From a virus (Duplodnaviria; Heunggongvirae; Uroviricota; Caudoviricetes): a stretch of 64,000 nt of DNA. A program made the position numbers and the translations under genes. Shown piece after piece: positions 592-44,445 of the stretch; position 1 is the first letter of the stretch; the number at the start of each line of letters is the position of its first letter. The notes under the pieces are model-generated. The model ran no database searches, was not told where the DNA came from, and saw only the letters and a list, made by a program, of their open reading frames with translations. The stretch spans positions 44,218-108,217 of IMG/VR virus record IMGVR_UViG_3300032205_000001, one strand, 5' to 3'.

Positions 592-1002
592 CTAGCTACA
601 ATCGATGGGGGTGTACATTCCAGACGAGTAGCGCCCGGACTGATACTCCACGCTCTTGCGCGGCATGGCCACGAGCCGCTCTTCACCGAATTCGCCTTGC
701 ATCTTGCCGATTTCGATGACGTAACCGTAGTCATAGGACTGCGGAGCGCGCGTGCGCAGAAGCTTGTAATCCGCCGTGATGTCTTCGATGAGGTGCGGCG
801 GGTCACCCACAAGCGAGCGCAGATACTGCTCTGCCACGAAGAATTTGGCGCTCGTCGTCGATAGAGGCGGCGAGATGTAGAACCCATCACGACGAGCAAG
901 GTCGCCAGCTTCATCGTAGAACCGACGAGCCGCATCGCTGCTACGTTCGATGAGAGCATCGAATTGCTTGATTGGAATCTTGAATTGGACGATTCGGAAC
1001 AT
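592..1002 (-). CDS. hypothetical protein (136 aa)
   Basis: ORF track; start codon abuts the divergent cassette at 1000-1073; convergent with the 15..458 gene over shared hairpins. Confidence 0.5.
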   Translation of the reverse strand: MFRIVQFKIPIKQFDALIERSSDAARRFYDEAGDLARRDGFYISPPLSTTSAKFFVAEQYLRSLVGDPPHLIEDITADYKLLRTRAPQSYDYGYVIEIGKMQGEFGEERLVAMPRKSVEYQSGRYSSGMYTPIDCS

Positions 1003-1073
1003 GCTCTTACTACCGTCGGCGTGGCCAACGATTTCACGAAAGATTTGAGGTTTGCGGTTGTAGTGAGAGCATG
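1000..1073. promoter_or_regulatory. divergent promoter/operator cassette, copy 1 (CAT-N6-ACTAC...TTCACGAAAGA...GGTTGTAGT-N6-ATG)
   Basis: Shared architecture with copies at 2158, 2806, 3667, 5143, 7234, 8574 and 9478. Confidence 0.5.
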
Positions 1074-1328
1074 CCCAGAACCCTCAAAGAACTTGCGAAG
1101 GAAGCGCTCGATGTCCAGGATGCCTGCAACCTATCGGGTGTGGCCCATGGGTTTGCTCGGGCGATGACAGACCTCGGCGAGCACACGAACGGCACGGACG
1201 CACGCAACAAGCATCCCGTGGCCGTGCTTTGGGCGGATAAGATCGCTCATCTCACGGGCACGCAAGACCTCGGCAACGACGTCACGACGAAGGCCTACTC
1301 GTGGGCCTACGATCTGCTCAAGACCTAG
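1071..1328 (+). CDS. hypothetical protein (85 aa)
   Basis: ATG 6 nt after the GGTTGTAGT cassette half-site; ends before the palindrome at 1393-1413. Confidence 0.45.
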   Translation: MPRTLKELAKEALDVQDACNLSGVAHGFARAMTDLGEHTNGTDARNKHPVAVLWADKIAHLTGTQDLGNDVTTKAYSWAYDLLKT

Positions 1329-2160: not shown

Positions 2161-2222
2161 GGTTTGACTACAATCCTCGTTGGTGCGTTTTTCAGAAAAA
2201 CAGAGGTTCGATGGTTGTAGTG
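2158..2222. promoter_or_regulatory. divergent cassette, copy 2; the right half drives the tRNA-like element
   Basis: GACTACAAtcc...TTTTCAGAAAAA...GGTTGTAGTG. Confidence 0.5.
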
Positions 2223-2264
2223 TGGGTGTGGCTTGGTGCGTACGAGGCATCAGCCCTCTCGAAG

Positions 2265-2808: not shown

Positions 2809-2880
2809 GCTCGTACTACAAGGAACGAATCTCGGATTTTCAGAGAAAATGCAGGCTGCCTCGGTTGTAGTGCAGGCATG
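2806..2880. promoter_or_regulatory. divergent cassette, copy 3
   Basis: CAT-gctcgt-ACTACAAgg...TTTTCAGAGAAAA...GGTTGTAGT-gcaggc-ATG. Confidence 0.55.
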
Positions 2881-3480: not shown

Positions 3481-3669
3481 CTAGCGGGCGGTGAACTCAC
3501 CACTCGCTACTTCGGGTGCTGTACGGATGACAGGCTCCGGCATCTCGCCGTCCCATCCCAGATACAGCTGCGCCGCAATCACCAACATGCGAGGCTGCTC
3601 GGTAACCGGCTGCTCGTATGCCAGAAGGTTGGCAACGCGGCGAACATCCTGATTGAATGTGTCCAGCAT
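3481..3669 (-). CDS. hypothetical protein (62 aa)
   Basis: ORF track; start abuts the cassette at 3667-3741. Confidence 0.35.
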   Translation of the reverse strand: MLDTFNQDVRRVANLLAYEQPVTEQPRMLVIAAQLYLGWDGEMPEPVIRTAPEVASGEFTAR

Positions 3670-3741
3670 GGTTCTACTACCGAAGAGAATCCTCTGAATT
3701 TCAGTGAAAAGCCAACGCCCCTAACCTGTAGTGAAGGCATG
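3667..3741. promoter_or_regulatory. divergent cassette, copy 4
   Basis: ACTACcg...AATTTCAGTGAAAA...TGTAGTgaaggcATG. Confidence 0.5.
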
Positions 3742-4158
3742 AGCAACGAAACCCAACAGCCGAAACTGATCAACATCCTGTCCATCGACGCGTGGGCCGA
3801 CGGTGAGGACGGTTGGAACTGGAACATGTGGACGAAGGTCGGCACGTGCGACGTGTCCCTCTGCGACAAGCCCGAGGCTGAAATCCTCGCGTTTCTCGTG
3901 GCGTGGGATTTCCTCACGGAGAAAGCGCTGACCTCGTGCTACGTCGAAGATGATCAGTACAACATGGTCATCTGCGACAAGGAAACGCATCAGCCCCTTT
4001 TCGCGTTGGAGTACGGCGCACTTCAGGATGTGCCCGATAACCAGCCTCCTCCGGGCTCGTGGGCTGATGTGGCTCGGATGATGGCAGCTACCAGCGACGA
4101 TCCCTCGATCGACTGGGATGCGTGGAAAGATGAGATGAAAGAATCTGACCTGGATTAA
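3739..4158 (+). CDS. acidic hypothetical protein (139 aa)
   Basis: ORF track; cassette-driven; followed by a 10-bp hairpin at 4164-4186. Confidence 0.5.
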   Translation: MSNETQQPKLINILSIDAWADGEDGWNWNMWTKVGTCDVSLCDKPEAEILAFLVAWDFLTEKALTSCYVEDDQYNMVICDKETHQPLFALEYGALQDVPDNQPPPGSWADVARMMAATSDDPSIDWDAWKDEMKESDLD

Positions 4159-4250: not shown

Positions 4251-4817
4251 CTAGCCTCGGTTGGCCCACGCCGCTTCGAGCGCCTCGTGATACTTCGGGT
4301 CGACGTGCTCTTTCATGCCCTGAAGGTCATCGCCGAAGAAACCAAAGCACGAATCTTCGTGCTCCTCTTCGTGGACCTTCGAGCCACACTCGCCGCAATC
4401 GTGCGTTGACTCGATGGTGAATCCCCACACGTTGCCCGTGAGGAAATCATCGTAGATTTTTACTTCGCTCTTGAGCACAGCCTCGGCAGTCTCGCGAATC
4501 TTCTTTGTGATGCGCTTGACCATGTAGCACTTACGAATCGCCTCGGGCGTGGCCACGATGTAGCCGACCTGCCCTGAATCCCACGGGCAACCAAACGAGC
4601 CCGTGCTCATGGTGATGCCCGAGTGATCGTAGAGATACAGAGGGAGCACGATGCTGCCCTTGGGCGCATTCTCCTTCAGCCACTCTTGCGGGTCTTGCTT
4701 GGGCTGCACGTCACCGAGGTTATAGCGACGGTGCCAGCAAGCCATCACGCCGAGGTTATCCCATTCGCGTGGTGAGCCAGGGTCGGTGTCTTGAATGACT
4801 TTGACGATGATGCTCAT
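4251..4817 (-). CDS. hypothetical protein (188 aa)
   Basis: ORF track; start abuts a half cassette at 4815-4860. Confidence 0.5.
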   Translation of the reverse strand: MSIIVKVIQDTDPGSPREWDNLGVMACWHRRYNLGDVQPKQDPQEWLKENAPKGSIVLPLYLYDHSGITMSTGSFGCPWDSGQVGYIVATPEAIRKCYMVKRITKKIRETAEAVLKSEVKIYDDFLTGNVWGFTIESTHDCGECGSKVHEEEHEDSCFGFFGDDLQGMKEHVDPKYHEALEAAWANRG

Positions 4818-4860
4818 GGTCGTACTACAACTAGCCGAGGTTTGTTTTTCAGGATTTCTG
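4815..4860 (-). promoter_or_regulatory. half cassette (left half plus centre) upstream of gene 4251..4817
   Basis: CAT-ggtcgt-ACTACAAct...TTTTTCAGGATTTC; no right half, palindrome 4879-4899 follows. Confidence 0.45.
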
Positions 4861-4935: not shown

Positions 4936-5145
4936 CTAGGCAGCGAGGATTGTCTTCAGCATGCGCCGTGCGACGTTACGGCCCATGCGCTTGCCCCCTG
5001 GGATGGTGATCGTCGGCGAGCCCGGTTTGCTCATGACGATGTGAGAACCCTTGCCCCGACCGGGGAGCACTTCGTAGCCGTTCTCTTTTGCGAGATCGAC
5101 TAGATCCCTCGGTGTTGCCGTGTGGACTGAGATCGTTTTGCTCAT
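4936..5145 (-). CDS. HicA-like (YcfA family) putative mRNA-interferase toxin domain protein (69 aa)
   Basis: KGSH..PG..TIP..G..R.ILK pattern typical of the HicA fold; the start abuts the cassette at 5143-5216; no HicB-like partner seen. Confidence 0.45.
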   Translation of the reverse strand: MSKTISVHTATPRDLVDLAKENGYEVLPGRGKGSHIVMSKPGSPTITIPGGKRMGRNVARRMLKTILAA

Positions 5146-5216
5146 GCTCGCACTACAAGATCTCAGCTCGTCGTTTTCATGAAAAACAAAGCGTGCGAGG
5201 TTGTAGTCGAGACATG
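5143..5216. promoter_or_regulatory. divergent cassette, copy 6 (hicA-like gene on the left, 266-aa gene on the right)
   Basis: CAT-gctcgc-ACTACAAga...TTTTCATGAAAAA...GGTTGTAGT-cgagac-ATG. Confidence 0.55.
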
Positions 5217-6014
5217 CTGAATCGAACCATTGCCGGAATGCTCAAAGAGAACACGGGCTCGCATTTCCTCGATTCGGGGAGCGCGTACGGTCGCAATCAC
5301 GAGCGTAACCAGAAACGCACGTTCGAGAATGAGCCGGAGGCAACGGTCGATTTCAAGTATGGGGTTGAGGTGACGATCAACGTCTACCATTTCCTCAAGG
5401 ATCGGCTCACGCTTTCCACGGCGATGGATCGCAAGTTTCAGCGGTTCTGTAACCGCAAGGAGCACGCGAGCGAGACCTACTTTTCTCTCATCGATACGTG
5501 GCTCGCTACGTTCGATGAGGTTAGCGGCCTGTACGGCGAAGGTTCGCCGATGACCGTCAATACCTACAACGGCGAAGATCTGCTTTCCCAGGTCATTCAG
5601 TACACGCTGTTTCGCATCGATGACACCGATTACGTGGCTCTCATGATCCACGGTGGGTGCGATGTCCGTGGTGGCTACACTCGCCCGCGCATCTTCGAAG
5701 TGAACGGCGATGCTGCATGCATGTTCGATAACGCTCGTGCGTCGATCTACTGCACGCGCACGGGCAAGGTTCCCGGCCTGTTTGGTGAGATGGATGCGTG
5801 CGGTGCGTACTGGGACACGGAAAACGGCCACTCGTGGCACCGTGAAGGCAACTACGCCAGCGCTGGCGGTACGCAGCTTCAGGACTACGATCGCACCGAA
5901 GAGGAAAAGGGCGAGACCTGGGAAGCGGGCAAGCTTCACGTCCTGAAGGATGGATCGGCGCTTTGTCCGTGCTGCGGTGCGGCATTGGGCGTGAGCCACA
6001 TGGGCGGATACTGA
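5214..6014 (+). CDS. hypothetical protein (266 aa, begins MLNRTIAG, C-terminal CPCCG)
   Basis: In frame with track ORF 5088..6014 (Met43); ATG lies 6 nt after GGTTGTAGT of the cassette. Confidence 0.5.
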   Translation: MLNRTIAGMLKENTGSHFLDSGSAYGRNHERNQKRTFENEPEATVDFKYGVEVTINVYHFLKDRLTLSTAMDRKFQRFCNRKEHASETYFSLIDTWLATFDEVSGLYGEGSPMTVNTYNGEDLLSQVIQYTLFRIDDTDYVALMIHGGCDVRGGYTRPRIFEVNGDAACMFDNARASIYCTRTGKVPGLFGEMDACGAYWDTENGHSWHREGNYASAGGTQLQDYDRTEEEKGETWEAGKLHVLKDGSALCPCCGAALGVSHMGGY

Positions 6015-6093: not shown

Positions 6094-6131
6094 TTGACTT
6101 TGACAATGCGCTCTGATAGGTTGTGTACATG
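6094..6131 (+). promoter_or_regulatory. sigma-70-type leaderless promoter of the sigma-factor gene (TTGACT-N17-TAGGTT-N6-ATG) with an overlapping TTGACAAT box
   Basis: Same hexamer-N6-start geometry as seven other sites in the window. Confidence 0.45.
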
Positions 6132-6650
6132 CTGAATACGACGCACCAAGAAATCCTCGGGCTCCGCAACGAAATCCGCCGTGTGGTGGCGATGGTGTTG
6201 CGCACGTCGCGCTACTTCGCCGATGACCACATCGAAGAGTGCATGTCCGACGTCATGCTCCAGGCTTTCGACTACGGTGCGCGTACGTTCGATCCGAGCA
6301 AAGGCTCGGCGAAGTCTCATTTCACCACGTTCGCTAAGCACCGTGCCAAGAATTGGCTCAACCGGGCGTGCCGTCGGTTCGAAGTAGCCGACGAGTCTAC
6401 TACCGAGGACGGGGAGACTGTTTCTCACACGGCGAGCGTGCCGGCCGATGGAAACCCGGCGCTATCCCTCATGGCATCGCAAGAGCGTGCCCGGGTGCTC
6501 GCCGCAGTCGAGACCCTAGAAGACCGTGAGCGTGCGCTCGTACATGCGTTCCTTCGGCTGGGCTCGTGGATGCTCGCCGCAAAGGAAATCGGCGTTTCGC
6601 CGGCTACGGCTAGCCGAATGAAGGCCGATATCGTGGCGAAGCTTCGCTAG
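6129..6650 (+). CDS. ECF-like sigma-70 family sigma factor (region 2 + region 4 HTH)
   Basis: HFTTFAKHRAKNWLNR (region 2.x) and ERALVHAFLRLGSWMLAAKEIGVSPATASRMKADIVAKLR (region 4); TTGACT-N17-TAGGTT-N6-ATG promoter at 6094-6131. Confidence 0.7.
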   Translation: MLNTTHQEILGLRNEIRRVVAMVLRTSRYFADDHIEECMSDVMLQAFDYGARTFDPSKGSAKSHFTTFAKHRAKNWLNRACRRFEVADESTTEDGETVSHTASVPADGNPALSLMASQERARVLAAVETLEDRERALVHAFLRLGSWMLAAKEIGVSPATASRMKADIVAKLR

Positions 6651-6658
6651 GTAGGTCG

Positions 6659-6729
6659 GGCGCGCAAGCGCTTGCGCCGCTCACGGCCAACAGAAAACTC
6701 TTATTGAATGGGTCTAAGGGGAGTTTTCC
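6659..6729. terminator. GCGCAAGCGCTTGCGC palindrome plus split GAAAACTC-N20-GAGTTTTCC
   Basis: Between convergent genes 6129..6650 and 6739..7236. Confidence 0.5.
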
Positions 6730-6738
6730 CTTAGGGGC

Positions 6739-7236
6739 TCACAGCCCGAACGCTGCATCATCGAAGGTGCATTGCGAGCACTCGATGTCCGGGATTTCGA
6801 TCTCGAAGTCCCCGTGATCATCGAACCACGAGACACCGTGGCCCATGGCCTGCATTGCGAGGTAGTGGCCGAATTCCTCGGCGTCGAACCCATCCCGATC
6901 ACACTTCGCGCACTTGCTCTTGTGCTCGACGTCGGCTTGCTCGGCACGCTCGGCGAGCACATACACACTGACCTTGTTTGCCGCTTCCAGAGCGGCCCAC
7001 AGTTCGCCAGCGAGCGCGAAAGCAGCCGGCGGGGTCTGGGGTGCGTAGTCACTCCAATTCTCGCCAGCGCCCGGCCTAGGAAGGCTCAAGCGAGCCTTAC
7101 GCTCTGCCTTGGTTAGCTCGTTATCGGTCGAATGACCCTCTTCGACGAAATCGGCGTAAGCCGAAACGAAGAAAGCCTTCGCCGCAGCGAGTAGGAATTC
7201 ATCCTTGAAGATCGAGCTAGAGCCGATGTTCGTCAT
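6739..7236 (-). CDS. hypothetical protein (165 aa, acidic, CxxC pairs)
   Basis: Track ORF 6739..7527 trimmed to Met98 (ATG 7236) abutting the cassette at 7234-7308. Confidence 0.45.
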   Translation of the reverse strand: MTNIGSSSIFKDEFLLAAAKAFFVSAYADFVEEGHSTDNELTKAERKARLSLPRPGAGENWSDYAPQTPPAAFALAGELWAALEAANKVSVYVLAERAEQADVEHKSKCAKCDRDGFDAEEFGHYLAMQAMGHGVSWFDDHGDFEIEIPDIECSQCTFDDAAFGL

Positions 7237-7308
7237 GTTCGTACTACAACCATCGTGCGATTCGTTTTCTCTGAAAATTAGAGGATTGATGCTTGTAGTA
7301 CTGACATG
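7234..7308. promoter_or_regulatory. divergent cassette, copy 8
   Basis: CAT-gttcgt-ACTACAAcc...TTTTCTCTGAAAAT...TTGTAGTAC-tgac-ATG. Confidence 0.55.
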
Positions 7309-7599
7309 AGCAAAGCTGACGAACACATCCAGTACCATCTCACCATCCCCACGGGTCACATCCGACTCTTCACGATCCTCAGCGGCCTCAAGCTGGAGAT
7401 CAAGTTCCCGGGCATGCGCATGACCCGCAAGGCCCCGAAGTGCAGCACGATCCTCCGCCAGGAGTTCGGCCTCAGCGGCAAGCCGCAAAAGCTGTACGAT
7501 CAGTTCCTGGGGCTGCTCGTGAAGCATGGCGTGCCGCTCCCCGGCGAATACGTCAACCCCACGCCGCCGGCACCGACGACCGAGCCCGAGGTGAACTGA
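7306..7599 (+). CDS. hypothetical protein (97 aa)
   Basis: ORF track; cassette-driven; ends before the palindrome at 7631-7657. Confidence 0.4.
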   Translation: MSKADEHIQYHLTIPTGHIRLFTILSGLKLEIKFPGMRMTRKAPKCSTILRQEFGLSGKPQKLYDQFLGLLVKHGVPLPGEYVNPTPPAPTTEPEVN

Positions 7600-7630
7600 G
7601 AGCCCGGCGCTCCGGCGCCACCGGCCAACA

Positions 7631-7672
7631 GAAAACTCTTATGGCCTAGAGTTTTCCTCTATTGGCCTTGCG
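7631..7672. terminator. GAAAACTCT-tatggcct-AGAGTTTTCC hairpin plus GGCC-ttgc-GGCC
   Basis: Between convergent genes; GGCCTTGCGGCC recurs at 11357-11368. Confidence 0.5.
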
Positions 7673-7681
7673 GCCTGCTCC

Positions 7682-7864
7682 TTACTCGTCCCAGTAGTGG
7701 CGCGTTGCCGCGTCGTACTCCTGGTCAAGCTCGTGCTCGTCGAGGAGTTCAGCCTGCACGTTGCGAGCGCCACCCCTGGGCTGATTGCGGTGACGCATGT
7801 AACCGGCGTTGCGGTGCTGTGCCGCTACTGCAACCCCGGACCGTTTGTTGATGTATTTCGCCAT
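7682..7864 (-). CDS. hypothetical protein (60 aa)
   Basis: ORF track; start abuts a half cassette at 7862-7905. Confidence 0.35.
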   Translation of the reverse strand: MAKYINKRSGVAVAAQHRNAGYMRHRNQPRGGARNVQAELLDEHELDQEYDAATRHYWDE

Positions 7865-7905
7865 GGTGACACTACAACCGTGCGCATTGGGTTTTTCAGT
7901 CTACC
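7862..7905 (-). promoter_or_regulatory. half cassette upstream of gene 7682..7864
   Basis: CAT-ggtgac-ACTACAAcc...TTTTTCAGTCTACC. Confidence 0.4.
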
Positions 7906-8257
7906 CGAGCGGATTGGTTTTGCCACCACAACACGGGCCACCAATGGGCCAGTAGTCGCACGTCCAGCCTAGCCGCTCGTGGTCGATGGATGAATGGTGG
8001 CAGTGACCGTGCCCATTGGCTTGGTTTGCCTCGCATTCCTCGTGGTGCGCCTTCAACTTGCGCCGATGGATGATTTCGCAATAGCGATGGTTCACGTACT
8101 GAAGCATCGCAGCGAGGATCCGATCACCCTTTGTGATGGTGCCCGTCCATTGCTTGATCTCCAATTCGCGCAATAGCTCTTCGTACTCTTCGGCTGTGAG
8201 ACAGATCGAAGAGTCGAAGTAGAGCCGGATCAATGGTTCAACTGGCTTATCCGCCAT
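7901..8257 (-). CDS. His/Cys-rich hypothetical protein (118 aa)
   Basis: Track ORF 7901..8443 trimmed to Met63 (MADKPVEP); 11-nt overlap with the upstream gene. Confidence 0.4.
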   Translation of the reverse strand: MADKPVEPLIRLYFDSSICLTAEEYEELLRELEIKQWTGTITKGDRILAAMLQYVNHRYCEIIHRRKLKAHHEECEANQANGHGHCHHSSIDHERLGWTCDYWPIGGPCCGGKTNPLG

Positions 8258-8576
8258 TGGACACCGGCCCGAGCACAGCAAAGCGGTGACGGCTACCACC
8301 GAGGTTGGAGCGGCAGCACGAGCACATGCGCCAGCTGAATTCGTTGATACCGTCGCCGGTTTCGGAGTCGAAGTCCGGCACGAGGTTGGGCCCGAGGCGT
8401 GCGAGACCAGCATCGATCTCAGCAGCGCGCTCCTTGGCGCCATCCCTCAGCTCGCCACGGCCCGGGGACTCACCCTTGCCATAGTGCTCGTCGATACCCG
8501 AGTAATCGCCGTTGACGGCAACGAACAGGCAATCCTGGCACAGTTGGAGGTCATCCATCACGACTTGCATCGCCAT
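8247..8576 (-). CDS. hypothetical protein (109 aa)
   Basis: Track ORF 8247..8843 trimmed to Met90; CAT-N6-ACTACAA at the cassette 8574-8648. Confidence 0.4.
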   Translation of the reverse strand: MAMQVVMDDLQLCQDCLFVAVNGDYSGIDEHYGKGESPGRGELRDGAKERAAEIDAGLARLGPNLVPDFDSETGDGINEFSWRMCSCCRSNLGGSRHRFAVLGPVSNGG

Positions 8577-8648
8577 GCCTGTACTACAACCGAGCAATCT
8601 CCAATTTTCAGAGAAAACGCGGACCGGGTTGGTTGTAGTCGAGGCATG
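8574..8648. promoter_or_regulatory. divergent cassette, copy 10
   Basis: CAT-gcctgt-ACTACAAcc...TTTTCAGAGAAAA...GGTTGTAGT-cgaggc-ATG. Confidence 0.55.
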
Positions 8649-8831
8649 CTGCACACATTCATCATCCTGTTTCTCAACACCCCAGGTCCGCACGTTCCGC
8701 ACAAGGTCGATCACAAGGCCGACATGCGCGTGAGCGAGCACATCATCGACTCGTCCAAGAATGGCGAGAACTCGCGCAAGCGGCAGCTCCACAGCATGTG
8801 GCGCGACGAGTACAAGCTGGCGCGGAAGTAA
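8646..8831 (+). CDS. hypothetical protein (61 aa, begins MLHTFII)
   Basis: In frame with track ORF 8286..8831 (Met121); ATG lies 6 nt after GGTTGTAGT. Confidence 0.35.
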   Translation: MLHTFIILFLNTPGPHVPHKVDHKADMRVSEHIIDSSKNGENSRKRQLHSMWRDEYKLARK

Positions 8832-8835
8832 TCCC

Positions 8836-9036
8836 ATGGCCAAGCGTAGCGATGCTCAAATCCTTCGGGACCTTCAGGGTGTGGAAAACGGGCTGAGTCC
8901 AGAGAACCTCTGGTGTGATGGGGAAGCGAGCCCGGCTTACGTGCGCAAGCGTGGCGCAGAACTGAGGCGCCAGCGTGCAGCTCTGATCAAAGAGCTAGGA
9001 CGTGAGCCCACTACATCCGAGCTGTATGGGTTTTGA
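8836..9036 (+). CDS. hypothetical protein (66 aa)
   Basis: In frame with track ORF 8761..9036 (Met26); followed by hairpin 9039-9058 and palindrome 9092-9111. Confidence 0.35.
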   Translation: MAKRSDAQILRDLQGVENGLSPENLWCDGEASPAYVRKRGAELRRQRAALIKELGREPTTSELYGF

Positions 9037-9038
9037 TC

Positions 9039-9111
9039 CCTGAGCTGAGTCGCTCAGGTAGATCTCGCACCGTGCTGTGAAGCCCTGTGACGGAAAACTC
9101 TAAGAGTTTTC
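9039..9111. terminator. CCTGAGC-tgagt-c-GCTCAGG hairpin plus GGAAAACTC-TAA-GAGTTTTC
   Basis: Between convergent genes 8836..9036 and 9202..9480. Confidence 0.5.
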
Positions 9112-9201
9112 TAAATACAATAGCTGATTGGATCTGGTGATCCTTCCGGCCTTGGTAGGCGGCTCAGCTGGCAGCTCTATATACAGATCGTGAGCCACCC
9201 A

Positions 9202-9480
9202 CTACGGTGCCGTCGCCACACCTTCGCTGCCATCGTCATAGGTGATTTTGTCGTACTCGCCGCACACCTTGAACTTGTCGAGAAACATCAGCTCGCCACG
9301 GTCCATCACCCATGGCTTGTAGGTGATCTCGGTGTCGAGTGGAACGTCGATCGACTCGGTGATCGCATCCAGATGGAGCGTATCGCCGTTCACGGTCAGC
9401 TTGCGCGCGAGGTGTCCCGTGTAAGCGCAGCGAATCTCGCAGCTCTTGTGCCCTGCCATCAGCGTGCGGAAGGTCATCAT
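9202..9480 (-). CDS. hypothetical protein (92 aa)
   Basis: ORF track; start abuts the cassette at 9478-9551. Confidence 0.45.
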   Translation of the reverse strand: MMTFRTLMAGHKSCEIRCAYTGHLARKLTVNGDTLHLDAITESIDVPLDTEITYKPWVMDRGELMFLDKFKVCGEYDKITYDDGSEGVATAP

Positions 9481-9551
9481 GGTCTGACTACAACCATCGA
9501 GCCCGTCGTTTTCACGAAAATCCCGAGGTTCGCGCTTGTAGTACGGACATG
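9478..9551. promoter_or_regulatory. divergent cassette, copy 11
   Basis: CAT-ggtctg-ACTACAAcc...TTTTCACGAAAAT...TTGTAGTAC-ggac-ATG. Confidence 0.55.
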
Positions 9552-9746
9552 CTGCAATTCGTTCTCACCATCAACGTCGAGGGGCTGTCCTACGCTGACG
9601 TGGCGAGTGCGCTACGTGCCACGGCTTCCCATCTCGCAGCTGGCCGCTACAGTGCGCTCATCGCCGAAGGCGGCGACTCTGGCCGCATCATGGCCGAGGA
9701 CAAAGAGACTCGCATTGGTGGCTGGCACATCACCGAGGACAAGTAG
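9549..9746 (+). CDS. hypothetical protein (65 aa, begins MLQFVLT)
   Basis: ORF track; cassette-driven. Confidence 0.4.
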   Translation: MLQFVLTINVEGLSYADVASALRATASHLAAGRYSALIAEGGDSGRIMAEDKETRIGGWHITEDK

Positions 9747-9748
9747 CC

Positions 9749-9928
9749 ATGTATCGCACGTTCAAGCGCAGCTGTACGGACTGGCAAAGCTTCGCCAGCG
9801 CTCGCAAGATGACGGTTGATACCCATCTCAGCTACGCGCAAGCGCTCGAAGCCTGCGAGCAATTCAACAACAATCGGACCCCGCGCCAGATTCGCAAGGG
9901 GACTAAGCTCGAATTCGAGCGCATGTAA
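9749..9928 (+). CDS. hypothetical protein (59 aa; below the ORF-track size cut-off)
   Basis: Manual ORF MYRTFKRSCTDWQSF...EFERM; starts 3 nt after the previous stop; followed by a 12-bp long-range hairpin and the perfect palindrome at 10012-10029. Confidence 0.35.
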   Translation: MYRTFKRSCTDWQSFASARKMTVDTHLSYAQALEACEQFNNNRTPRQIRKGTKLEFERM

Positions 9929-9933
9929 GTTAC

Positions 9934-10068
9934 GCCAGGCACGGGGCACGAACACACTGGAACGTCGATCGTGCGGCGCCCAGTGATGCCCGTGCCTGGC
10001 TCTATATAACGGAAAACTCTAGAGTTTTCTTTCTACTAATCAACTACTAGTTCCTACTAAATTAGTAG
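9934..10068. terminator. 12-bp long-range hairpin (GCCAGGCACGGG ... CCCGTGCCTGGC), perfect 18-nt palindrome GAAAACTCTAGAGTTTTC (10012-10029) and CTACTAA-a-TTAGTAG
   Basis: Between convergent genes 9749..9928 and 10073..10522. Confidence 0.55.
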
Positions 10069-10072
10069 CAGC

Positions 10073-10522
10073 CTACGAGTACAGCACCGTGATCGATGCG
10101 GCGTAGGGGTTCGGGCTGAACTCCAGCCGGAGGCTCTTGATCGAGCAGTGCTCCAGCTTCTGCAGGCGAGCGATAAGCCGCTCGGCGGCATGCTGCGCCA
10201 GTAGCTCGCACGAGAGCGTAGTGGGCTCGCTGGCGATGCGATCCATGAACACCCCGAGCATGGCCTGGTCGAAGAGAAAGCCCCGGGAATCGAGCTTAGG
10301 CTCGCACTCCACGCTGACGTTCCAGCGGACGGGAATTGCCTTGCGGCCACCGTCGACCCGAACGAGCTGATCAGCCGGACCACAGTGATTGGTGCCCGGG
10401 GTCACGATGAAATTCGACAGCCCAGCGCGCTGGATCGTCATCGTGCGGAGGGAGAGGGAGATCGTGCGCACGGGCGCAGCAACCGGCTTAACAACCTTCG
10501 TCGTCGTGTGTTGGTTCAGCAT
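10073..10522 (-). CDS. hypothetical protein (149 aa, begins MLNQHTT)
   Basis: ORF track; preceded on the minus strand by TTGACA-N17-TAAAAC-N8-ATG (10523-10559). Confidence 0.5.
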   Translation of the reverse strand: MLNQHTTTKVVKPVAAPVRTISLSLRTMTIQRAGLSNFIVTPGTNHCGPADQLVRVDGGRKAIPVRWNVSVECEPKLDSRGFLFDQAMLGVFMDRIASEPTTLSCELLAQHAAERLIARLQKLEHCSIKSLRLEFSPNPYAASITVLYS

Positions 10523-10559
10523 GACAACCGTTTTATCAGGTCATGCGGCGATTGTCAAG
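10523..10559 (-). promoter_or_regulatory. leaderless promoter CCTTGACAATCG-N17-TAAAAC-N8-ATG
   Basis: Reverse complement read of 10523-10562. Confidence 0.5.
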
Positions 10560-10566
10560 GTATCAT

Positions 10567-10791
10567 TTACTTGGAATCCCGAGGTTTCCTGATCATCCGT
10601 TTGGCGCTTGCGAGCCCGCACTCGAAGCATCGCCGGCATGGGTAGAGACTACAGATCGGCAGCACGGGAATTTCAGCCTGGAAAACTCTTCCACGTCGAT
10701 CTTCAGATCGGTAGTTAAACCAGGTGATCTCGAAGAGCGCCATCCACTCGGGATCGATCTTTAGCTCAAGCTTCTGTGAGGAGTTTTCCAT
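10567..10791 (-). CDS. possible small protein (74 aa)
   Basis: ORF track; its start overlaps a GAGTTTTCC half-site; sits inside a split palindrome (10689-10789); weak. Confidence 0.2.
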   Translation of the reverse strand: MENSSQKLELKIDPEWMALFEITWFNYRSEDRRGRVFQAEIPVLPICSLYPCRRCFECGLASAKRMIRKPRDSK

Positions 10792-10799
10792 AACGGGCC

Positions 10800-11225
10800 C
10801 TAGGCCGCGATGCCCTCGGCCGGTTCGTCCACGTCAGAGAGTGAGGTTCCGCTTTGCGCGGCAAGCCACACCTCGCGGGAGAGCTGTCCCTCGTCGATGA
10901 TCTCCCAGTAACGATAGCCCGATTCGGCTTCCCACTCCACGGCGATCATGCGCCCGGTGTAGCTCGACGGGGGCTCCGGGCGATACGCGTGGCTCGCTTC
11001 CCAGGCCGCACGATGCTCAGCCTCTTGAGCCCAGAAACGGGCCTCCTCGCCGCACTCGTCGCACGTGACGAGCATGCAACAGCACGGCGCATCCATCCAA
11101 AACGGTTGTAGATCGACGTCCCGGCCATTGTCGACCACGAGCGAAGCCTTACGGGCTGCGATCTCTGCGAGATACAGCTTGTGACCGACGTAGCGGCGGA
11201 AGCGCTTTCCGAAGGTGCGAGCCAT
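10800..11225 (-). CDS. hypothetical protein (141 aa)
   Basis: ORF track; start abuts a half cassette at 11223-11268. Confidence 0.45.
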   Translation of the reverse strand: MARTFGKRFRRYVGHKLYLAEIAARKASLVVDNGRDVDLQPFWMDAPCCCMLVTCDECGEEARFWAQEAEHRAAWEASHAYRPEPPSSYTGRMIAVEWEAESGYRYWEIIDEGQLSREVWLAAQSGTSLSDVDEPAEGIAA

Positions 11226-11268
11226 GCCTGTACTACAAGCCAGGGAGAAACGTTTTTCAGGGATTCGA
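11223..11268 (-). promoter_or_regulatory. half cassette upstream of gene 10800..11225
   Basis: CAT-gcctgt-ACTACAAgcc...TTTTTCAGGGATTC. Confidence 0.4.
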
Positions 11269-11305
11269 AGGATTCACAGATCGTGATCACGCCACAGGGG
11301 AAGAA

Positions 11306-11368
11306 GAAAACTCTAGAGTTTTCCACTCCCCAAAGCGCGCAAGCGCTTGCCCCGTAGGGCCTTGCGGC
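11306..11368. terminator. GAAAACTCTAGAGTTTTCC palindrome, GCAAGCGCTTGC palindrome and GGCCTTGCGGCC, downstream of the leftward sigma gene
   Basis: Perfect inverted repeats. Confidence 0.55.
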
Positions 11369-11905
11369 CTAGGCCTCGTCGGCGAGATCCGCCACGATGG
11401 CTTTCATCCGGCGGGTTGCCGTGGCAGGCGACCATCCGACGAGCGCTCCGGCCTCGGTCTGTCCCATGCCGTCCAGCATGGCGCCCACGAACGTACGAGC
11501 GTCCGAGTCGAGCGTATCGAGCGCAGTGGCAAGCCAAGCCATCTCCGACCGACGCTCGACATCGAGGCGACCATCGGGGCCCACGAACGAACCACACTCG
11601 GCCACGTTCGTGCCGAGGGTATCGACGAGCATGCTCGTGTTCCCCTCGTCGTCGGAAGCTTCCGACACGTGGCCATTGTTGGCGCTCGCCTTGCGCCAGT
11701 TACGAGCGGTATTGCTGGCGATACGGAGCGCCCACGACTCGAACGAACCACGGGACTCGTCGAAGGTTTCGACGGCCGACAGGATGCGCACAACCGCATC
11801 CGACACGATGTCATCGGTGGCCGACGTGGGGCCAATGGCCCGCTCGACGGCGCGCGACATGGACTTGAGTAGCTTCGCGTTCAGTGCAGCGTTGATGTTC
11901 AGCAT
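11369..11905 (-). CDS. ECF-like sigma-70 family sigma factor (paralogue of 6129..6650)
   Basis: FESWALRIASNTARNWRK (region 2) and ARTFVGAMLDGMGQTEAGALVGWSPATATRRMKAIVADL (region 4); promoter TTGACA-N17-GATAGT-N6-ATG at 11906-11940 on the minus strand. Confidence 0.7.
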   Translation of the reverse strand: MLNINAALNAKLLKSMSRAVERAIGPTSATDDIVSDAVVRILSAVETFDESRGSFESWALRIASNTARNWRKASANNGHVSEASDDEGNTSMLVDTLGTNVAECGSFVGPDGRLDVERRSEMAWLATALDTLDSDARTFVGAMLDGMGQTEAGALVGWSPATATRRMKAIVADLADEA

Positions 11906-12043
11906 GTAGAGACTATCTCATATCATCGCCCGATTGTCAAGCATTCCGAGCATACTCAAATACGCCATATTGCTCGAGAATCTAAGATTGTCGAGGTATC
12001 GACGGACCTTGACAATCGAGCGGGACCGTGCTACCTTCTGTCT
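11906..12043. promoter_or_regulatory. divergent control region: leftward TTGACA-N17-GATAGT-N6-ATG and rightward CCTTGACAATCG-N17-TACCTT-N6-ATG, with the imperfect inverted repeat GATTGTCgAGG-N10-CCtTGACAATC
   Basis: Read directly from the sequence; the inverted repeat overlaps the rightward -35. Confidence 0.55.
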
Positions 12044-12307
12044 ATGCTGAACCACAACGATTCCCTGGTGAAGATGGCTTCCGAGCGCTACGAGCAAGCT
12101 GCGGCCGATCTGGAAAAGGCCTGCAAGGCTTACCGTAAGCATGCCTCGGGCCCGATGGCCGATTTCTACGATCTCCGTATGGAGGAGGCGTTCACGGCAT
12201 TGGAGATCGCAGCGGACGATCTGAGGGAGATCCGCGATGGCTACCGCCACACCTACCCCCATCCCGTGGCCATGGCGCCGCATGGCTCACGCTACCCGGT
12301 ACGCTAA
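12044..12307 (+). CDS. hypothetical protein (87 aa, begins MLNHNDS)
   Basis: ORF track; promoter TTGACA-N17-TACCTT-N6-ATG at 12009-12046. Confidence 0.5.
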   Translation: MLNHNDSLVKMASERYEQAAADLEKACKAYRKHASGPMADFYDLRMEEAFTALEIAADDLREIRDGYRHTYPHPVAMAPHGSRYPVR

Positions 12308-12699
12308 GCAGGCCTAGATCCTAGCAGATCTGGCATGCATTGTCAAGATCTCGCGTATGCATAGGAAAACTCTAATGTATACACGGCATATAGCGTGCCA
12401 ATATAGGAGTTTTCCATGGCTATGCATGCAACACATTGATATCATTGGCGCGAAAACTCTCCGCGCATAGGGATTTCAGCCTATTGGAGGGCGTGCCGGT
12501 CCCCACGTCTAATCACGACACCTTTTCACCCTCTAATAGGTCATTCCGCGATTGTCAATTTTCGTTTCAAAGGGGACCCTATTTCCATTTCCAATAGGAA
12601 ATCGAAAATATTGGAGAACTATTTTTCACCTGGAACACCTATTAACGCATTGTCAATGGCGCTCTTGACAATGAAGCCCGCCCCAACGAACCTCTTCCC
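12308..12699. promoter_or_regulatory. AT-rich repeat-dense intergenic region (candidate origin or regulatory switch)
   Basis: Five CCAATAGG/CCTATTGG-type boxes; the split palindrome GGAAAACTC (12364-12372) ... GAGTTTTCC (12407-12415) flanked by TATGCATA; a GCGCG-AAAACTCT-CGCGC hairpin; CATTGTCAA-N9-TTGACAATG (12647-12673); an A/T-rich stretch at 12580-12625. Confidence 0.4.
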
Positions 12700-12939
12700 A
12701 TGATGGAGACGCTCTTTATCCAGTTGGGCGATTTGATGGTGAACATCGCCAAAGTGAACTACTTCAAGCCCGCCGTGGTCCCGCACAAGTGCTACATGTT
12801 CCTCCACGGGACGCAGAACCCCGTAGAGCTGGACATCGGGCTCGATGGAGTGAAGTCCGCCCTCGCCGAGACCTACCAGCAGATGGCGATGATGCAGGCC
12901 GCTGCCAACAAGGCGTATGGCTCGAAAGGCAGCTCGTGA
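12700..12939 (+). CDS. hypothetical protein (79 aa)
   Basis: ORF track; CATTGTCAA-N9-TTGACAATG inverted repeat lies just upstream. Confidence 0.45.
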   Translation: MMETLFIQLGDLMVNIAKVNYFKPAVVPHKCYMFLHGTQNPVELDIGLDGVKSALAETYQQMAMMQAAANKAYGSKGSS

Positions 12940-13544: not shown

Positions 13545-13650
13545 ACAATTCCTCCATCACCTATGAAAGTCCAACGTCAGACGCTTGTAGTACGACTATC
13601 ACTGCCAACCGGGACCCACTTCGGAATCCCTACCGGCACTGGAGTCAACG

Positions 13651-15107: not shown

Positions 15108-15140
15108 TGTAGGATGTCGGATAAATTTCAAAAATTCGGG
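15108..15140 (+). repeat. 33-bp dispersed repeat TGTAGGATGTCGGATAAAtTTCAAAAATTCGgG, copy 1 (second copy at 16931-16965)
   Basis: About 85% identity; copy 1 encodes the 9-codon ORF MSDKFQKFG*, copy 2 supplies the start of gene 16937. Confidence 0.5.
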
Positions 15141-16930: not shown

Positions 16931-16965
16931 TGTAGGATGTCGGATAAAATCAAAAAATTCGAGGG
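16931..16965 (+). repeat. 33-bp dispersed repeat, copy 2
   Basis: See copy 1. Confidence 0.5.
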
Positions 16966-21777: not shown

Positions 21778-21989
21778 ACGGCAATAACCAAATCGATGCG
21801 TCCGATTGGACCGAAGAAGACAAGCACTGGTATAGGTGCCTGTCGACGTTGTTCGATCGCAGGCGTATGGCAGACGGCGTCTACCAAACCGAAGACTGGC
21901 GCCGAGCCCGTATTGACTGCCGGCCCAGGTGGCGACGGTGGATGAGCATGCTACGCAAGGACTTTTGGCGCACCATTAGCGGTTGGTGA
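21774..21989 (+). CDS. hypothetical protein (71 aa, Trp/Arg-rich)
   Basis: In frame with track ORF 21741..21989. Confidence 0.35.
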   Translation: MNGNNQIDASDWTEEDKHWYRCLSTLFDRRRMADGVYQTEDWRRARIDCRPRWRRWMSMLRKDFWRTISGW

Positions 21990-22020
21990 AAGTTAAGTTC
22001 ATGTGGATTGTAGGTAAGAG

Positions 22021-22725
22021 ATGCGTTTTTACGAAGTTGGCGGCTGTGTTCGTGACCAGCTGATGGGGCTCACGTCGAAGGACGTGGACTTTGCCGTCGA
22101 GGCCGAGTCGTTCGAGGCCATGGAAGCGGAGCTGCGCAAGCGTGGCTTCAAGATTTTTCTGTCGACGCCAGAGTTTCTGACGATTCGCGCACAAGTGCCT
22201 GCACACGAGGAGAAGCTGCGCGCCCGGTCCAAGGATGCCGACTTCGTGCTCTGTCGGAAGGACAGCGCCACCGGGGATGGTCGGCGGCCGGACTTTGTCG
22301 AGCCAGGGACCATCCTGGACGACCTGGCTCGTCGTGACTTCACGATGAACGCCATCGCCGTGGACGTGGAGACGGGCGATATGATCGATCCGCACAACGG
22401 CCGGCACGACATCAAGCAGAACCTCCTCCGGTTCGTCGGTGACCCGTACAAGCGGATCAACGAGGACGGCCTGCGCGTTCTTCGTGGGCTGCGGTTCCTC
22501 ATCACCAAGGGACTGCAGGCCGAGATGGAGACCGGCGATGCCCTCATCAGCTTCGATTCACACAAGATGCTGATGAAGGTGTCGATCGAGCGGGTGCGCG
22601 AGGAGCTGGAGAAGATGTTCAACTACGACACCATCGCGTCGTTGGAGCTTCTCCACGGCTATCCGAACCTGCTTCCGGCCATCTTCCGAGAAGGTCTACG
22701 TCTGGCGCCGACGCTGCGCCAATAG
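22021..22725 (+). CDS. minimal class-II CCA-adding/poly(A)-polymerase-type nucleotidyltransferase (head domain only, 234 aa)
   Basis: GGCVRDQLMG..DVDFAV (GGxVRD, DxD), RRDFTMNA (RRD) and LRVLRGLRFLITKG (RxLRxxRF) motifs; no tRNA-binding body/tail domain. Confidence 0.65.
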   Translation: MRFYEVGGCVRDQLMGLTSKDVDFAVEAESFEAMEAELRKRGFKIFLSTPEFLTIRAQVPAHEEKLRARSKDADFVLCRKDSATGDGRRPDFVEPGTILDDLARRDFTMNAIAVDVETGDMIDPHNGRHDIKQNLLRFVGDPYKRINEDGLRVLRGLRFLITKGLQAEMETGDALISFDSHKMLMKVSIERVREELEKMFNYDTIASLELLHGYPNLLPAIFREGLRLAPTLRQ

Positions 22726-27398: not shown

Positions 27399-27554
27399 AT
27401 GGCGAAGAAGTTCAAGCTAGATCGCGCAGCCGTTGAGGCTGCCAAAGAGATGGTCAGGATGCCGAACACGAACTGGGACGAGCCCAGGCGGCGTGACGAG
27501 GTTCTGGCCGTAGCTCGGAATTACCTGGCGCTGATCGAGTCGCTCAAGAGCTAG
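27399..27554 (+). CDS. hypothetical protein (51 aa)
   Basis: Manual ORF MAKKFKLDRAAVEAAKEM... Confidence 0.3.
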   Translation: MAKKFKLDRAAVEAAKEMVRMPNTNWDEPRRRDEVLAVARNYLALIESLKS

Positions 27555-27736
27555 CGCAGCAGCGGCCCGGAGTATCCAAGCGCCTTCATCAGGTCGCTCA
27601 CGATCCCACTGAAGGCGAGATCGAAGTTGCACCAGTCTCGCTTCATGTACTCGCCGTCCTTTGCCTGGCCCCACAGCTTGTGCATCAGGTTGTGGGCGTT
27701 CTTGTAAGCTGCTAGGATTTCATCTGTATTGTTCAT
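27551..27736 (-). CDS. minus-strand small protein (61 aa)
   Basis: ORF track; start faces the AT-rich palindrome CATGTAG-N9-CTACATG at 27734-27760. Confidence 0.4.
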   Translation of the reverse strand: MNNTDEILAAYKNAHNLMHKLWGQAKDGEYMKRDWCNFDLAFSGIVSDLMKALGYSGPLLR

Positions 27737-27770
27737 GTAGGATATATACTACATGTAGGTGTTGAAGTCA

Positions 27771-27953
27771 ATGTCCGATTACACTAGCGAATTTTTTGCC
27801 CGGCTGCGCAAGGCATTGGAGGATGTTCGCGAGGAGTGCCGGCGACGTGGATGGGCGGATTACATTTACACGCCCTACGTTCCGCTGGTAATTACCCAGG
27901 TGTTCGATGAGCGAAAAGAAGAGAGAGATCGTCTGCCATCTGATCAAGGCTGA
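27771..27953 (+). CDS. hypothetical protein (60 aa)
   Basis: In frame with track ORF 27759. Confidence 0.35.
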   Translation: MSDYTSEFFARLRKALEDVREECRRRGWADYIYTPYVPLVITQVFDERKEERDRLPSDQG

Positions 27954-44188: not shown

Positions 44189-44445
44189 CCGTCGGTGACT
44201 TGCTCAACGAATGCGATCGGGCCCGTAAACAGGGACTGAAGTACGTCGTTCTCCGCATCGAACGTCACGGTGGTGCGTGGATGCAGGTCATGAAGGGTCT
44301 GTTGGGAAACGTCATTGGCTCAGACAAAACCGGCTCCTTCGTATCTGTCGACATTCTGAAGGCAGAATCGAAGGCGGTCGGAATTGATCCAGCCACAGAG
44401 ATTCCGAAGGTGTCAGCACATCGGTCTAAGGTGACAATGGGCTGA
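44185..44445 (+). CDS. hypothetical protein (86 aa, GTG start)
   Basis: In frame with track ORF 44020..44445. Confidence 0.35.
   Translation: MTVGDLLNECDRARKQGLKYVVLRIERHGGAWMQVMKGLLGNVIGSDKTGSFVSVDILKAESKAVGIDPATEIPKVSAHRSKVTMG

Follow-up and report, generated by a model that had tools for sequence, protein, structure and literature searches.

The lytic phage phiEco32 and Salmonella phage 7-11 encode small, divergent sigma-70-family proteins, gp36 and gp47 respectively, that bind host core RNA polymerase and read phage-specific promoters (PMC8948821, PMC12276001). The 7-11 protein reads a bipartite GTAAtg-N16-aCTA element and phiEco32 gp36 reads tAATGTAtA, with starts 6-8 bp downstream, so a phage sigma factor reading promoters of its own has precedent (PMC8948821). 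In Bacillus phage SPO1, host sigma-A drives early genes that include a phage sigma factor, and this factor switches the polymerase to the next promoter class (PMC13401047). Here we describe a viral locus that encodes two sigma factors of the extracytoplasmic function (ECF) type and contains two classes of predicted leaderless promoters: a TTGACA-type class marked by TTGACAAT, and a ‘cassette’ class that is largely organized in back-to-back pairs. The window, by which we mean the whole stretch of DNA analyzed, comprises 64 kb of the IMG/VR record IMGVR_UViG_3300032205_000001 (positions 44,218 to 108,217). On balance we consider it probable that host polymerase makes the phage sigma factors and that at least one of them reads the cassettes. 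This would be the strategy familiar from SPO1, phiEco32 and 7-11, in which a phage sigma made by host polymerase redirects the enzyme; phage sigma cascades as such are textbook knowledge.

The resemblance to phiEco32 and 7-11 extends to promoter geometry, since in those phages, too, starts lie 6-9 bp from a conserved -10-like element and the 7-11 promoter is likewise bipartite with a 16 bp spacer. Unlike those phages, each genome here carries two conserved paralogous sigma subfamilies, the sigma genes fall in the early-type class, and the candidate target promoters are leaderless and mostly back to back; we identified no gp79-like partner.

Comparisons below draw on the window and nine related loci that represent eight separate relatives (L018 is a second stretch of L002’s contig). 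We refer to the two sigma genes of the window as sigB-type and sigA-type:

6129..6650, plus strand: sigB-type ECF-like sigma gene (173 amino acids, starts MLN; sigma2, linker and sigma4; orthologues in L005, L001, L003 and L018)
11369..11905, minus strand: sigA-type ECF-like sigma gene (178 amino acids, starts MLN; Sigma70_r2 44.1 bits, TIGR02937 50.9 bits)

Both open reading frames (ORFs) lie where the initial annotation had placed them, and its description of two paralogous ECF-like sigma factors is borne out by domain scores and by the relationship between the proteins. The sigA-type protein matches Pfam Sigma70_r2 with E=1.8e-11, exceeding the 24-bit cut-off, and also exceeds the 42.9-bit cut-off of the TIGR02937 sigma70-ECF model. 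The sigB-type protein falls slightly under the first cut-off (E=9e-5, 22.6 bits) and below the second (40.5 bits). For both proteins the TIGR02937 alignment spans model positions 16-162 of 165, which in the sigA-type protein corresponds to residues 18-175. Neither sigma scores near any cut-off of the named ECF subfamily models, and neither has an above-threshold match to Pfam Sigma70_r4.

Structural comparisons point the same way. A profile of the sigA-type family matched SigE/SigW, CnrH, SigH and RpoE in the PDB, with CnrH aligned over residues 27-165, and a profile of the sigB-type family (15 members) matched the ECF sigma factor RpoE of R. sphaeroides (2q1z, E=2.3e-6) and M. tuberculosis SigK. 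An AlphaFold model of the sigB-type protein (AF2, from the family alignment; mean predicted local distance difference test score, pLDDT, 82) consists of two helical domains with a disordered linker between them (residues 86-109); helices 110-172 have pLDDT 82-92. The best 50 Foldseek matches of this model in the PDB were sigma factors throughout, with ECF sigmas L, H, K and E on top. Scores were weak (best E 2.5e-3, none at or below 1e-3; TM 0.29-0.40), as expected because the two domains sit on a flexible linker.

The two proteins are homologous over their full length (30% identity, E=3e-10), and the profiles of the two families can likewise be aligned along their entire length (hhalign: 99.6% probability, E=2.4e-24). 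They have in common FD..(R/K)GS and NW motifs in sigma2 and a C-terminal SPATA(T/S)R recognition helix, which is equally conserved in the two families. Both consist of sigma2 and sigma4, without region 1.1 and without a sigma3 domain. We count the sigB-type protein as a sigma factor because of its family-profile match, the structural matches of its model and the profile match to the sigA family. Judged by these comparisons, the two genes almost certainly encode ECF-type (two-domain) sigma factors, with core RNA polymerase binding and initiation as their predicted function. Cellular ECF sigmas typically, not universally, have a co-encoded anti-sigma factor and an autoregulated promoter. We found no recognizable domains in the genes neighboring the two sigma genes, and no Pfam domain there suggesting an anti-sigma or polymerase-binding role.

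Both sigma genes lie behind TTGACA-type promoters. To define this class (class 1), we collected each TTGAC(A/T)(A/C/T)T-N27-ATG at which an ORF of 35 or more codons begins, which yielded 36 sites in the window and the nine related loci. Numbered from the A of the ATG, these sites carry more than 1 bit of information exactly at -35..-28 (TTGACAAT), -12/-11 (TA) and +1..+8. In alignments most sites also have TG at -15/-14 and T at -7, and gATACCTTGACAAT is conserved upstream, beyond the normal -35 and -10. The layout is a -35 hexamer, a 17 bp spacer and an extended -10 with A-11 and T-7, which puts the predicted start on the A of the ATG. No purine-rich Shine-Dalgarno (SD) sequence was found in the 6 nt between -10 and ATG at class-1 sites, both sigma genes included. 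The source pipeline’s independent gene calls agree with the predicted starts of both promoter classes. Class-1 promoters near the sigma genes are as follows:

6094..6128, plus strand: promoter of the sigB-type gene (TTGACT 6094-6099; second, overlapping TTGACAAT 6100-6107; TG 6114-6115; TAGGTT 6117-6122; predicted start A6129)
10523..10558, minus strand: class-1 promoter of gene 10073-10522(-) (149 amino acids, starts ATGCTGAAC)
11906..11940, minus strand: promoter of the sigA-type gene (TTGACAAT 11940-11933, with TTGACA 11940-11935; TG 11920-11919; GATAGT 11917-11912; predicted start A11905)
12009..12043, plus strand: class-1 promoter of gene 12044-12307(+) (87 amino acids, starts ATGCTGAAC)
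12665..12699, plus strand: class-1 promoter of gene 12700-12939(+)

The window contains 16 copies of TTGACAAT, where 1.9 would be expected by chance. The motif is densest at 10.5-12.7 kb and scattered to 64 kb, in some cases with an ordinary leader and SD (e.g., 33010, leading to ATG 33060), and it is identical across all related genomes. All sigma orthologues with an unambiguous start show the class-1 layout, and that of the sigA-type promoter is repeated ahead of the orthologues in L001, L003 and L005. The promoter strings of the initial annotation – TTGACT-N17-TAGGTT-N6-ATG6129 and, on the minus strand, TTGACA-N17-GATAGT-N6-ATG11905, neither with an SD – are present as quoted. Its term ‘near-identical’ for the two went too far: the architecture is common to both, the spacer sequence is not. 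The division of the window into two promoter classes was upheld, and the TTGACA class has every hallmark of housekeeping-sigma recognition. Since TTGACA, the 17 bp spacer, the extended -10 TG, A-11 and T-7 are all present, we assign class 1 to the housekeeping-sigma type, and host sigma is likely to be its reader. A generic scan for sigma-70 promoters and terminators returned 5 promoters (4.8 expected) and 15 terminators (10.7 expected); the scan was uninformative, as it accepts only sites with a TATAAT-like -10 or, for terminators, a T-run.

Class 1 is conserved far past a normal -35 and -10, both upstream (gATACCTTGACAAT) and at +1..+9 (ATGCTGAAC), there are as many sigma subfamilies as promoter classes (two), and a special tandem -35 is seen at the sigB-type genes. 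Each of these features would suit an arrangement in which one phage sigma reads the TTGACAAT class, its own gene included (positive autoregulation of the kind seen with cellular ECF sigmas), the other reads the cassettes, and host polymerase only primes the circuit. However, TTGACA, TG at -15/-14, A-11, T-7 and 17 bp make up the complete signature of a housekeeping sigma (regions 2.4, 3.0 and 4.2), and the phage proteins lack a region 3 with which to read an extended -10 TG. We regard this arrangement as improbable.

The tandem -35, TTGAC(T/A)TTGACAAT, is limited to sigB-type genes (window 6094-6107, L005 near 12689(-), L018 5965-5978). Its upstream copy stands at the working distance, the canonical 8-mer lies 6 bp into the spacer, and the arrangement persists in orthologues with as little as 50% protein identity. 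Expression of the sigB-type sigma may thereby differ in strength or timing.

The cassette class differs in sequence. Aligned on the ATG, cassette sites share TGAAAA at -34..-29, TTGTAG at -13..-8 and C at -1, and their common form is TGAAAA-N16-TGTAG-N6/7-ATG, with at least 22 sites in the window. TTGTAGT-N6-ATG occurs 15 times in the window against 0.00 expected and is confined to 1-11.3 kb. The relaxed pattern GAAA-N17-TGTA-N8-ATG identifies 22 window sites, including four in a long rightward gene block (ATG 16157, 22021, 25087 and 37764; -10 TGTAGG). Across 10 genomes this pattern gives 131 sites, and the spacer is exactly 17 in all but one, in a search that permitted 17-19. More than half of the sites (74/131) form 37 divergent pairs, in 35 of which the predicted starts are 68-71 bp apart and in two 80-81 bp. 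The -35 hexamers of paired cassettes abut, TTTTCA directly against TGAAAA, to form the near-perfect 12 bp palindrome TTTTCATGAAAA in the 37 pairs. Cassette-class promoters in the window are as follows; divergent pairs are unstranded:

1003..1070, unstranded: divergent cassette, left arm with variant -10 GGTAGT; genes 592-1002(-) and 1071-1328(+)
2161..2227, unstranded: divergent cassette; left arm to the gene from 2160(-), right arm to GTG 2228, an ORF of 19 codons that is probably non-coding
2809..2877, unstranded: divergent cassette; genes from 2808(-) and 2878(+)
3670..3738, unstranded: divergent cassette with variant -10s GGTAGT and CTGTAGT; genes 3481-3669(-) and 3739-4158(+)
4818..4851, minus strand: single cassette-class promoter without palindrome; gene 4251-4817(-)
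5146..5213, unstranded: divergent cassette; HicA-like gene 4936-5145(-) and gene 5214-6014(+)
7237..7305, unstranded: divergent cassette; genes 6739-7236(-) and 7306-7599(+)
7865..7898, minus strand: single cassette-class promoter; gene 7682-7864(-)
8577..8645, unstranded: divergent cassette; genes 8247-8576(-) and 8646-8831(+)
9481..9548, unstranded: divergent cassette; genes 9202-9480(-) and 9549-9746(+)
11226..11259, minus strand: single cassette-class promoter; gene 10800-11225(-), immediately downstream of the sigA-type gene
13564..13598, plus strand: leadered cassette-class promoter TGAAAG-N16-TGTAGT; predicted start A13598, ATG 13651; heads the long rightward block
21987..22020, plus strand: cassette-like leaderless promoter GTGAAA-N16-TGTAGG-N6-ATG; CCA-adding/poly(A)-polymerase-family gene 22021-22725; siblings before ATG 16157, 25087 and 37764

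The promoter of the CCA-adding-type gene is conserved before its orthologue in L001 and L003. The 80-81 bp pairs (L002 17165-17246 and L003 17276-17356) are one helical turn beyond 68-71 bp, which hints that the two promoters of a pair need to stay in the same rotational phase.

Given the near-perfect 12 bp palindrome, present in 37 pairs, and the many ORFs of no recognizable function, TTTTCA-TGAAAA might alternatively serve as operator for a dimeric transcription factor of phage or host origin, or a sigma-independent phage RNA polymerase might read the cassette. Four single promoters, at 4817(-), 7864(-), 11225(-) and 13586(+), argue otherwise: each has a TGAAA(A/G) half-site at the same distance without the palindrome. 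Because they keep it, we take the half-site to be the unit and the palindrome a by-product. A spacer of fixed length and unconserved sequence also speaks for sigma-type recognition, and no RNA polymerase domain was seen among the ~40 ORFs scanned, in a scan that was not exhaustive. An operator or a sigma-independent polymerase is highly improbable as the explanation of the cassettes.

The cassette -10 has an invariant G at -11, and the bases that follow TGTA vary by genome: TGTAGT in the window and L005, TGTAG(G/A/T) in L001 and L009, TGTATTAG in L003, and TGTAGTAG in L002 and L013. We considered two cassette subclasses, one per sigma (TGTAGT versus TGTAGG), and rejected them since L001 and L009 mix G, A and T within like divergent cassettes. 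The paired cassette was found in 1 of 2.9 million IMG/VR contigs – the contig bearing both sigma types – and an exact search found it in none of 185,579 bacterial and archaeal species genomes.

Taken together, the two sigma genes and two promoter classes suggest a cascade, for which we infer the start sites, the enzyme that serves each class and the order in time. Host holoenzyme would transcribe early genes from the near-consensus TTGACAAT-class promoters, starting at the A of the ATG and producing leaderless mRNAs. Because both sigma genes belong to this class, the sigma factors would be made first by host holoenzyme. At least one phage sigma would then bind host core RNA polymerase and direct it to T-34GAAAA-29 ... 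T-13TGTAG-8, ending 6-7 nt before the ATG. The cassette class would drive most of the small genes at 1-11.3 kb, mainly via the 68-71 bp back-to-back pairs, and would also head and punctuate the long rightward block from 13.6 kb.

Two conserved elements separated by a spacer of constant length but variable sequence are a hallmark of sigma-dependent recognition, and group-1 sigmas depend on A at -11. The case for a phage sigma as cassette reader is thus strengthened by the bipartite form with its rigid N16 and ECF-like -35/-10, by the G that replaces A at -11, and by the confinement of the cassette to the lineage with these sigmas. A cassette -10 that drifts while TTGACAAT stays unchanged would be expected if the former is read by a phage factor that co-evolves with it and the latter by a conserved sigma of the host. 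The cassette TGAAAN-N16-TGTA has the ECF layout and differs by two bases from TGAAAC-N16-CGTA, the consensus of B. subtilis SigW; the sigA family, in turn, has SigW and RpoE among its best structural matches. Its TGTA core also resembles the tAATGTAtA of phiEco32.

Host RNA polymerase could instead read the cassettes with no phage sigma involved, either through an alternative (ECF-type) host sigma or through a housekeeping sigma that a small phage protein redirects, in the manner of AsiA/MotA in T4. The phage sigmas would then serve other promoters, such as late structural ones, beyond the window. This account draws on the position of the cassette hexamers at a canonical -35/-10, and on several unannotated small proteins made from early promoters that adjoin the sigma genes. 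Also in its favor, neither class was found ahead of the large unannotated genes at 47.5-53.8 kb, where a search for a third (late) class found nothing convincing; at least one further promoter class may therefore exist. Against it stand the invariant G at the position where group-1 sigmas need A, the drift of the cassette -10 between phage genomes while the TTGACA class stays constant, and the absence of the paired cassette from the species genomes searched, which would be odd for a host regulon motif. In addition, both sigma subfamilies are core to exactly the lineage that bears cassettes. We think host reading of the cassettes unlikely.

Several points nevertheless weigh against the proposed cascade itself. 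The early-type promoter shared by both sigma genes neither orders the sigmas nor assigns them to cassettes. With no cassette promoter at either gene, there is no autoregulation of the ECF type. Each cassette hexamer matches the sigma-70 consensus (TTGACA/TATAAT) at 4/6 positions with the optimal 17 bp spacing, and a modified host holoenzyme may remain compatible with these hexamers. Shared ancestry alone would give a lineage-restricted co-occurrence of sigmas and cassettes. Finally, the window covers 64 kb of a 175,284 bp contig, and the rest of the genome could hold a phage RNA polymerase or a third promoter class.

Beyond the promoter hexamers, the two classes differ in their first codons. 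ATGCTGAAY, for which chance predicts 1.06 occurrences, is present 7 times in the window, and 6/7 are at predicted leaderless starts. The start ATGCT(G/C)AAY is found in 26/36 TTGACAAT-class genes versus 9/126 cassette-class genes. By BLASTP the 36 class-1 genes form 17 families, and because 11 unrelated families share this start, protein homology cannot account for it. Nor can a leucine requirement alone, because CTG is strongly preferred: 25/29 class-1 leucine second codons are CTG, versus 33% of leucine codons in bulk window genes (p=6e-9; orthologues are included, so sites are partly dependent). The initial annotation had listed a recurring start and proposed that the first codons form part of the initiation signal. 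The list holds for the sigma genes, which start ATGCTGAA(T/C) and read MLN, and fails at 8646 and 9549, which start ATGCTGCA and not ATGCTGAA. The proposal itself fits the TTGACAAT class and does not fit the cassettes, so it does not apply to leaderless starts generally.

We tentatively suggest that ATGCTGAAC at +1..+9 acts as nucleic acid rather than through the encoded protein, as an initially transcribed or 5'-terminal element specific to class 1. It would set the transcription start at the A of the ATG and adjust how well the early mRNAs, those of both sigmas included, are translated without a leader or how stable they are; this is a possibility, and not our leading expectation. The 5' coding ends are A+C-rich in both leaderless classes (A+C fractions 0.65 and 0.62 versus 0.50 genome-wide), in agreement with the preference of leaderless mRNAs for low-structure 5' ends (PMC8459731). 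If the suggestion is right, this element and the 68-71 bp back-to-back cassette would together make up a fully leaderless two-tier viral expression system, in which promoter class, transcription start and translation start are contained in one ~45 bp unit.

The source of the window is probably a large lytic phage; a viral origin is indicated by an IMG/VR relative and by gene content typical of large phages. The relative, IMG/VR UViG_3300037042_004723 (197 kb), carries both sigma types. Besides the sigma genes, the window encodes a peptidoglycan-binding endolysin-like protein, an SPFH protein, a ParB/GmrSD_N-like protein, the CCA-adding/poly(A)-polymerase-family enzyme, a 5'-nucleotidase, a NADAR protein, DHFR, a HicA-like toxin and many ORFans. 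We saw no capsid or terminase gene within the 64-kb window, and no matches there to tRNA genes or Rfam families. The HicA-toxin-like gene, 4936-5145(-), is under a cassette promoter, and its position beside the sigB-type gene is kept in L003 and L005; no recognizable HicB partner was called.

To sort orthologues, we compared all ORFs from the window and four related loci with local phmmer searches. The sigma genes split into two orthologous groups, and the window, L001, L003 and L005 hold both types. An extra sigA-like copy is present in L001 and L003, and L002 has four sigA-like genes within 20 kb, with its sigB-type gene located elsewhere on the same contig (L018). The window itself has only two sigma genes, while one relative has up to five sigma-like genes. 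Both subfamilies co-occur in every large relative examined. Homologues in a collection of 5.8 billion proteins (71 sigA-type and 43 sigB-type) are metagenomic throughout, and part of the relatives come from Hainich groundwater assemblies. A profile search of the 185,579 bacterial and archaeal species genomes found no relative of the sigmas, and 50,697 catalogued phage records yielded nothing useful with the sigA-type protein (tblastn) or the surrounding 8 kb (blastn). By these searches the two subfamilies appear to be core genes found only in a clade of metagenomic large phages, whose related contigs measure 97, 197, 275 and 295 kb.

Palindromes mark the opposite ends of the genes. Terminator-like palindromes GGAAAACTCT...AGAGTTTTCC lie at gene 3' ends or between convergent genes (12363-12418 and others), of which one conserved example is:

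10010..10031, unstranded: terminator-like palindrome GGAAAACTCTAGAGTTTTC between convergent genes; others at ~6691-6729, 7629-7658, 9091-9113 and 11304-11325

GAAAACTCT occurs 17 times in the window versus 0.45 expected, and 12-46 times per 20 kb locus in relatives L001-L005. These GAAAACTCT palindromes and the promoters are at opposite gene ends and are not fused. The terminator-like palindromes are conserved in sequence across diverged genomes, which is unusual, and carry the same GAAAAC hexamer as the cassette -35; this suggests recognition by a protein.

We made several further observations on non-coding elements. The region 12310-12700 is gene-free and has three minus-strand TTGACAAT promoters (12346, 12558 and 12656) that open no ORF, one of them antisense into 12044-12307; the three are candidate sources of small or antisense RNAs. 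In L003, 9069-10001 beside the sigA-type gene is similarly TTGACAAT-rich with no called gene. At 27737-27771(-), a near-perfect leaderless sigma-70-type promoter, TTGACT-N17-TATATA-N6-ATG, stands ahead of gene 27551-27736(-), inside a TGTAGGATATATACTACATGTAGG near-palindrome. A predicted ~115 nt transcript from the right arm of the cassette at 2161..2227 (2228-2345) ends at a GAAAACTC palindrome and includes a T-arm-like hairpin, CAGGGTTCGATTCCCTG, at 2308-2324. We rejected this hairpin as a tRNA or other RNA gene: ARAGORN and Rfam made no call, it scores only as a fragment, and the transcript folds no better than shuffled sequences (z=-1.2). Similar T-arm-like motifs lie beside the CCA-adding enzyme gene in relatives. 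Two copies of TGTAGGATGTCGGATAAA(A)TTTCAAAAATTCG are present within the rightward gene block (15108-15140 and 16931-16963). AGATCTG repeats near promoters were dismissed as a signal, their count in the window being not above chance.

Among known systems, the window resembles SPO1 (gp28, then gp33/34) in having more than one phage sigma per genome and a phage sigma that would be made early. Unlike in SPO1, where the second sigma is a middle gene, both sigma genes here are early-type and a strict relay is not evident. With the cellular ECF (group 4) sigmas – SigW of B. subtilis, RpoE of E. coli and R. sphaeroides, CnrH of C. metallidurans – the phage proteins share the sigma2-linker-sigma4 architecture and a length of ~175 amino acids, and they score best against ECF families and structures. 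They differ in that they are virus-encoded, fall below every named-subfamily cut-off, and have neither a recognizable anti-sigma partner nor an autoregulatory promoter.

The promoter early stem-loop (PeSL) elements of T4-type phages are repeated conserved modules around small accessory genes in plastic regions, and may promote modular shuffling (PMC2839356, PMC4122927). The cassettes are like PeSLs in being highly repeated regulatory modules around ORFans. A PeSL is a stem-loop fused to a sigma-70 early promoter, whereas promoters and palindromic terminators are separate here, and by that definition we rejected the cassettes as PeSLs; the cassettes are also bidirectional, leaderless and probably not read by host sigma. 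In leaderless genes of Deinococcus-Thermus and Actinobacteria, the -10 directly adjoins the ORF (PMC12340547, PMC3160421). The window shares this geometry, with a -10 hexamer that ends 6-7 nt before the start codon and a predicted mRNA that begins at the AUG with no SD. Unlike those genes, it combines in one virus two promoter classes of this geometry, one of them with a conserved +1..+9.

What is new is thus in the detail: two conserved sigma subfamilies in one clade of large phages known only from uncultured material, the leaderless design to which both promoter classes strictly adhere, the repeated 68-71 bp back-to-back module with its base-pair-exact geometry, and the +1..+9 element of the early class. 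ECF sigmas often function with a heterologous core polymerase. One or two sigma/promoter pairs from this locus are open to testing and could be used as orthogonal parts. The >130 predicted leaderless starts form a natural set for studying the translatability of 5'-AUG mRNA. The system also hints that the host translates leaderless mRNAs efficiently.

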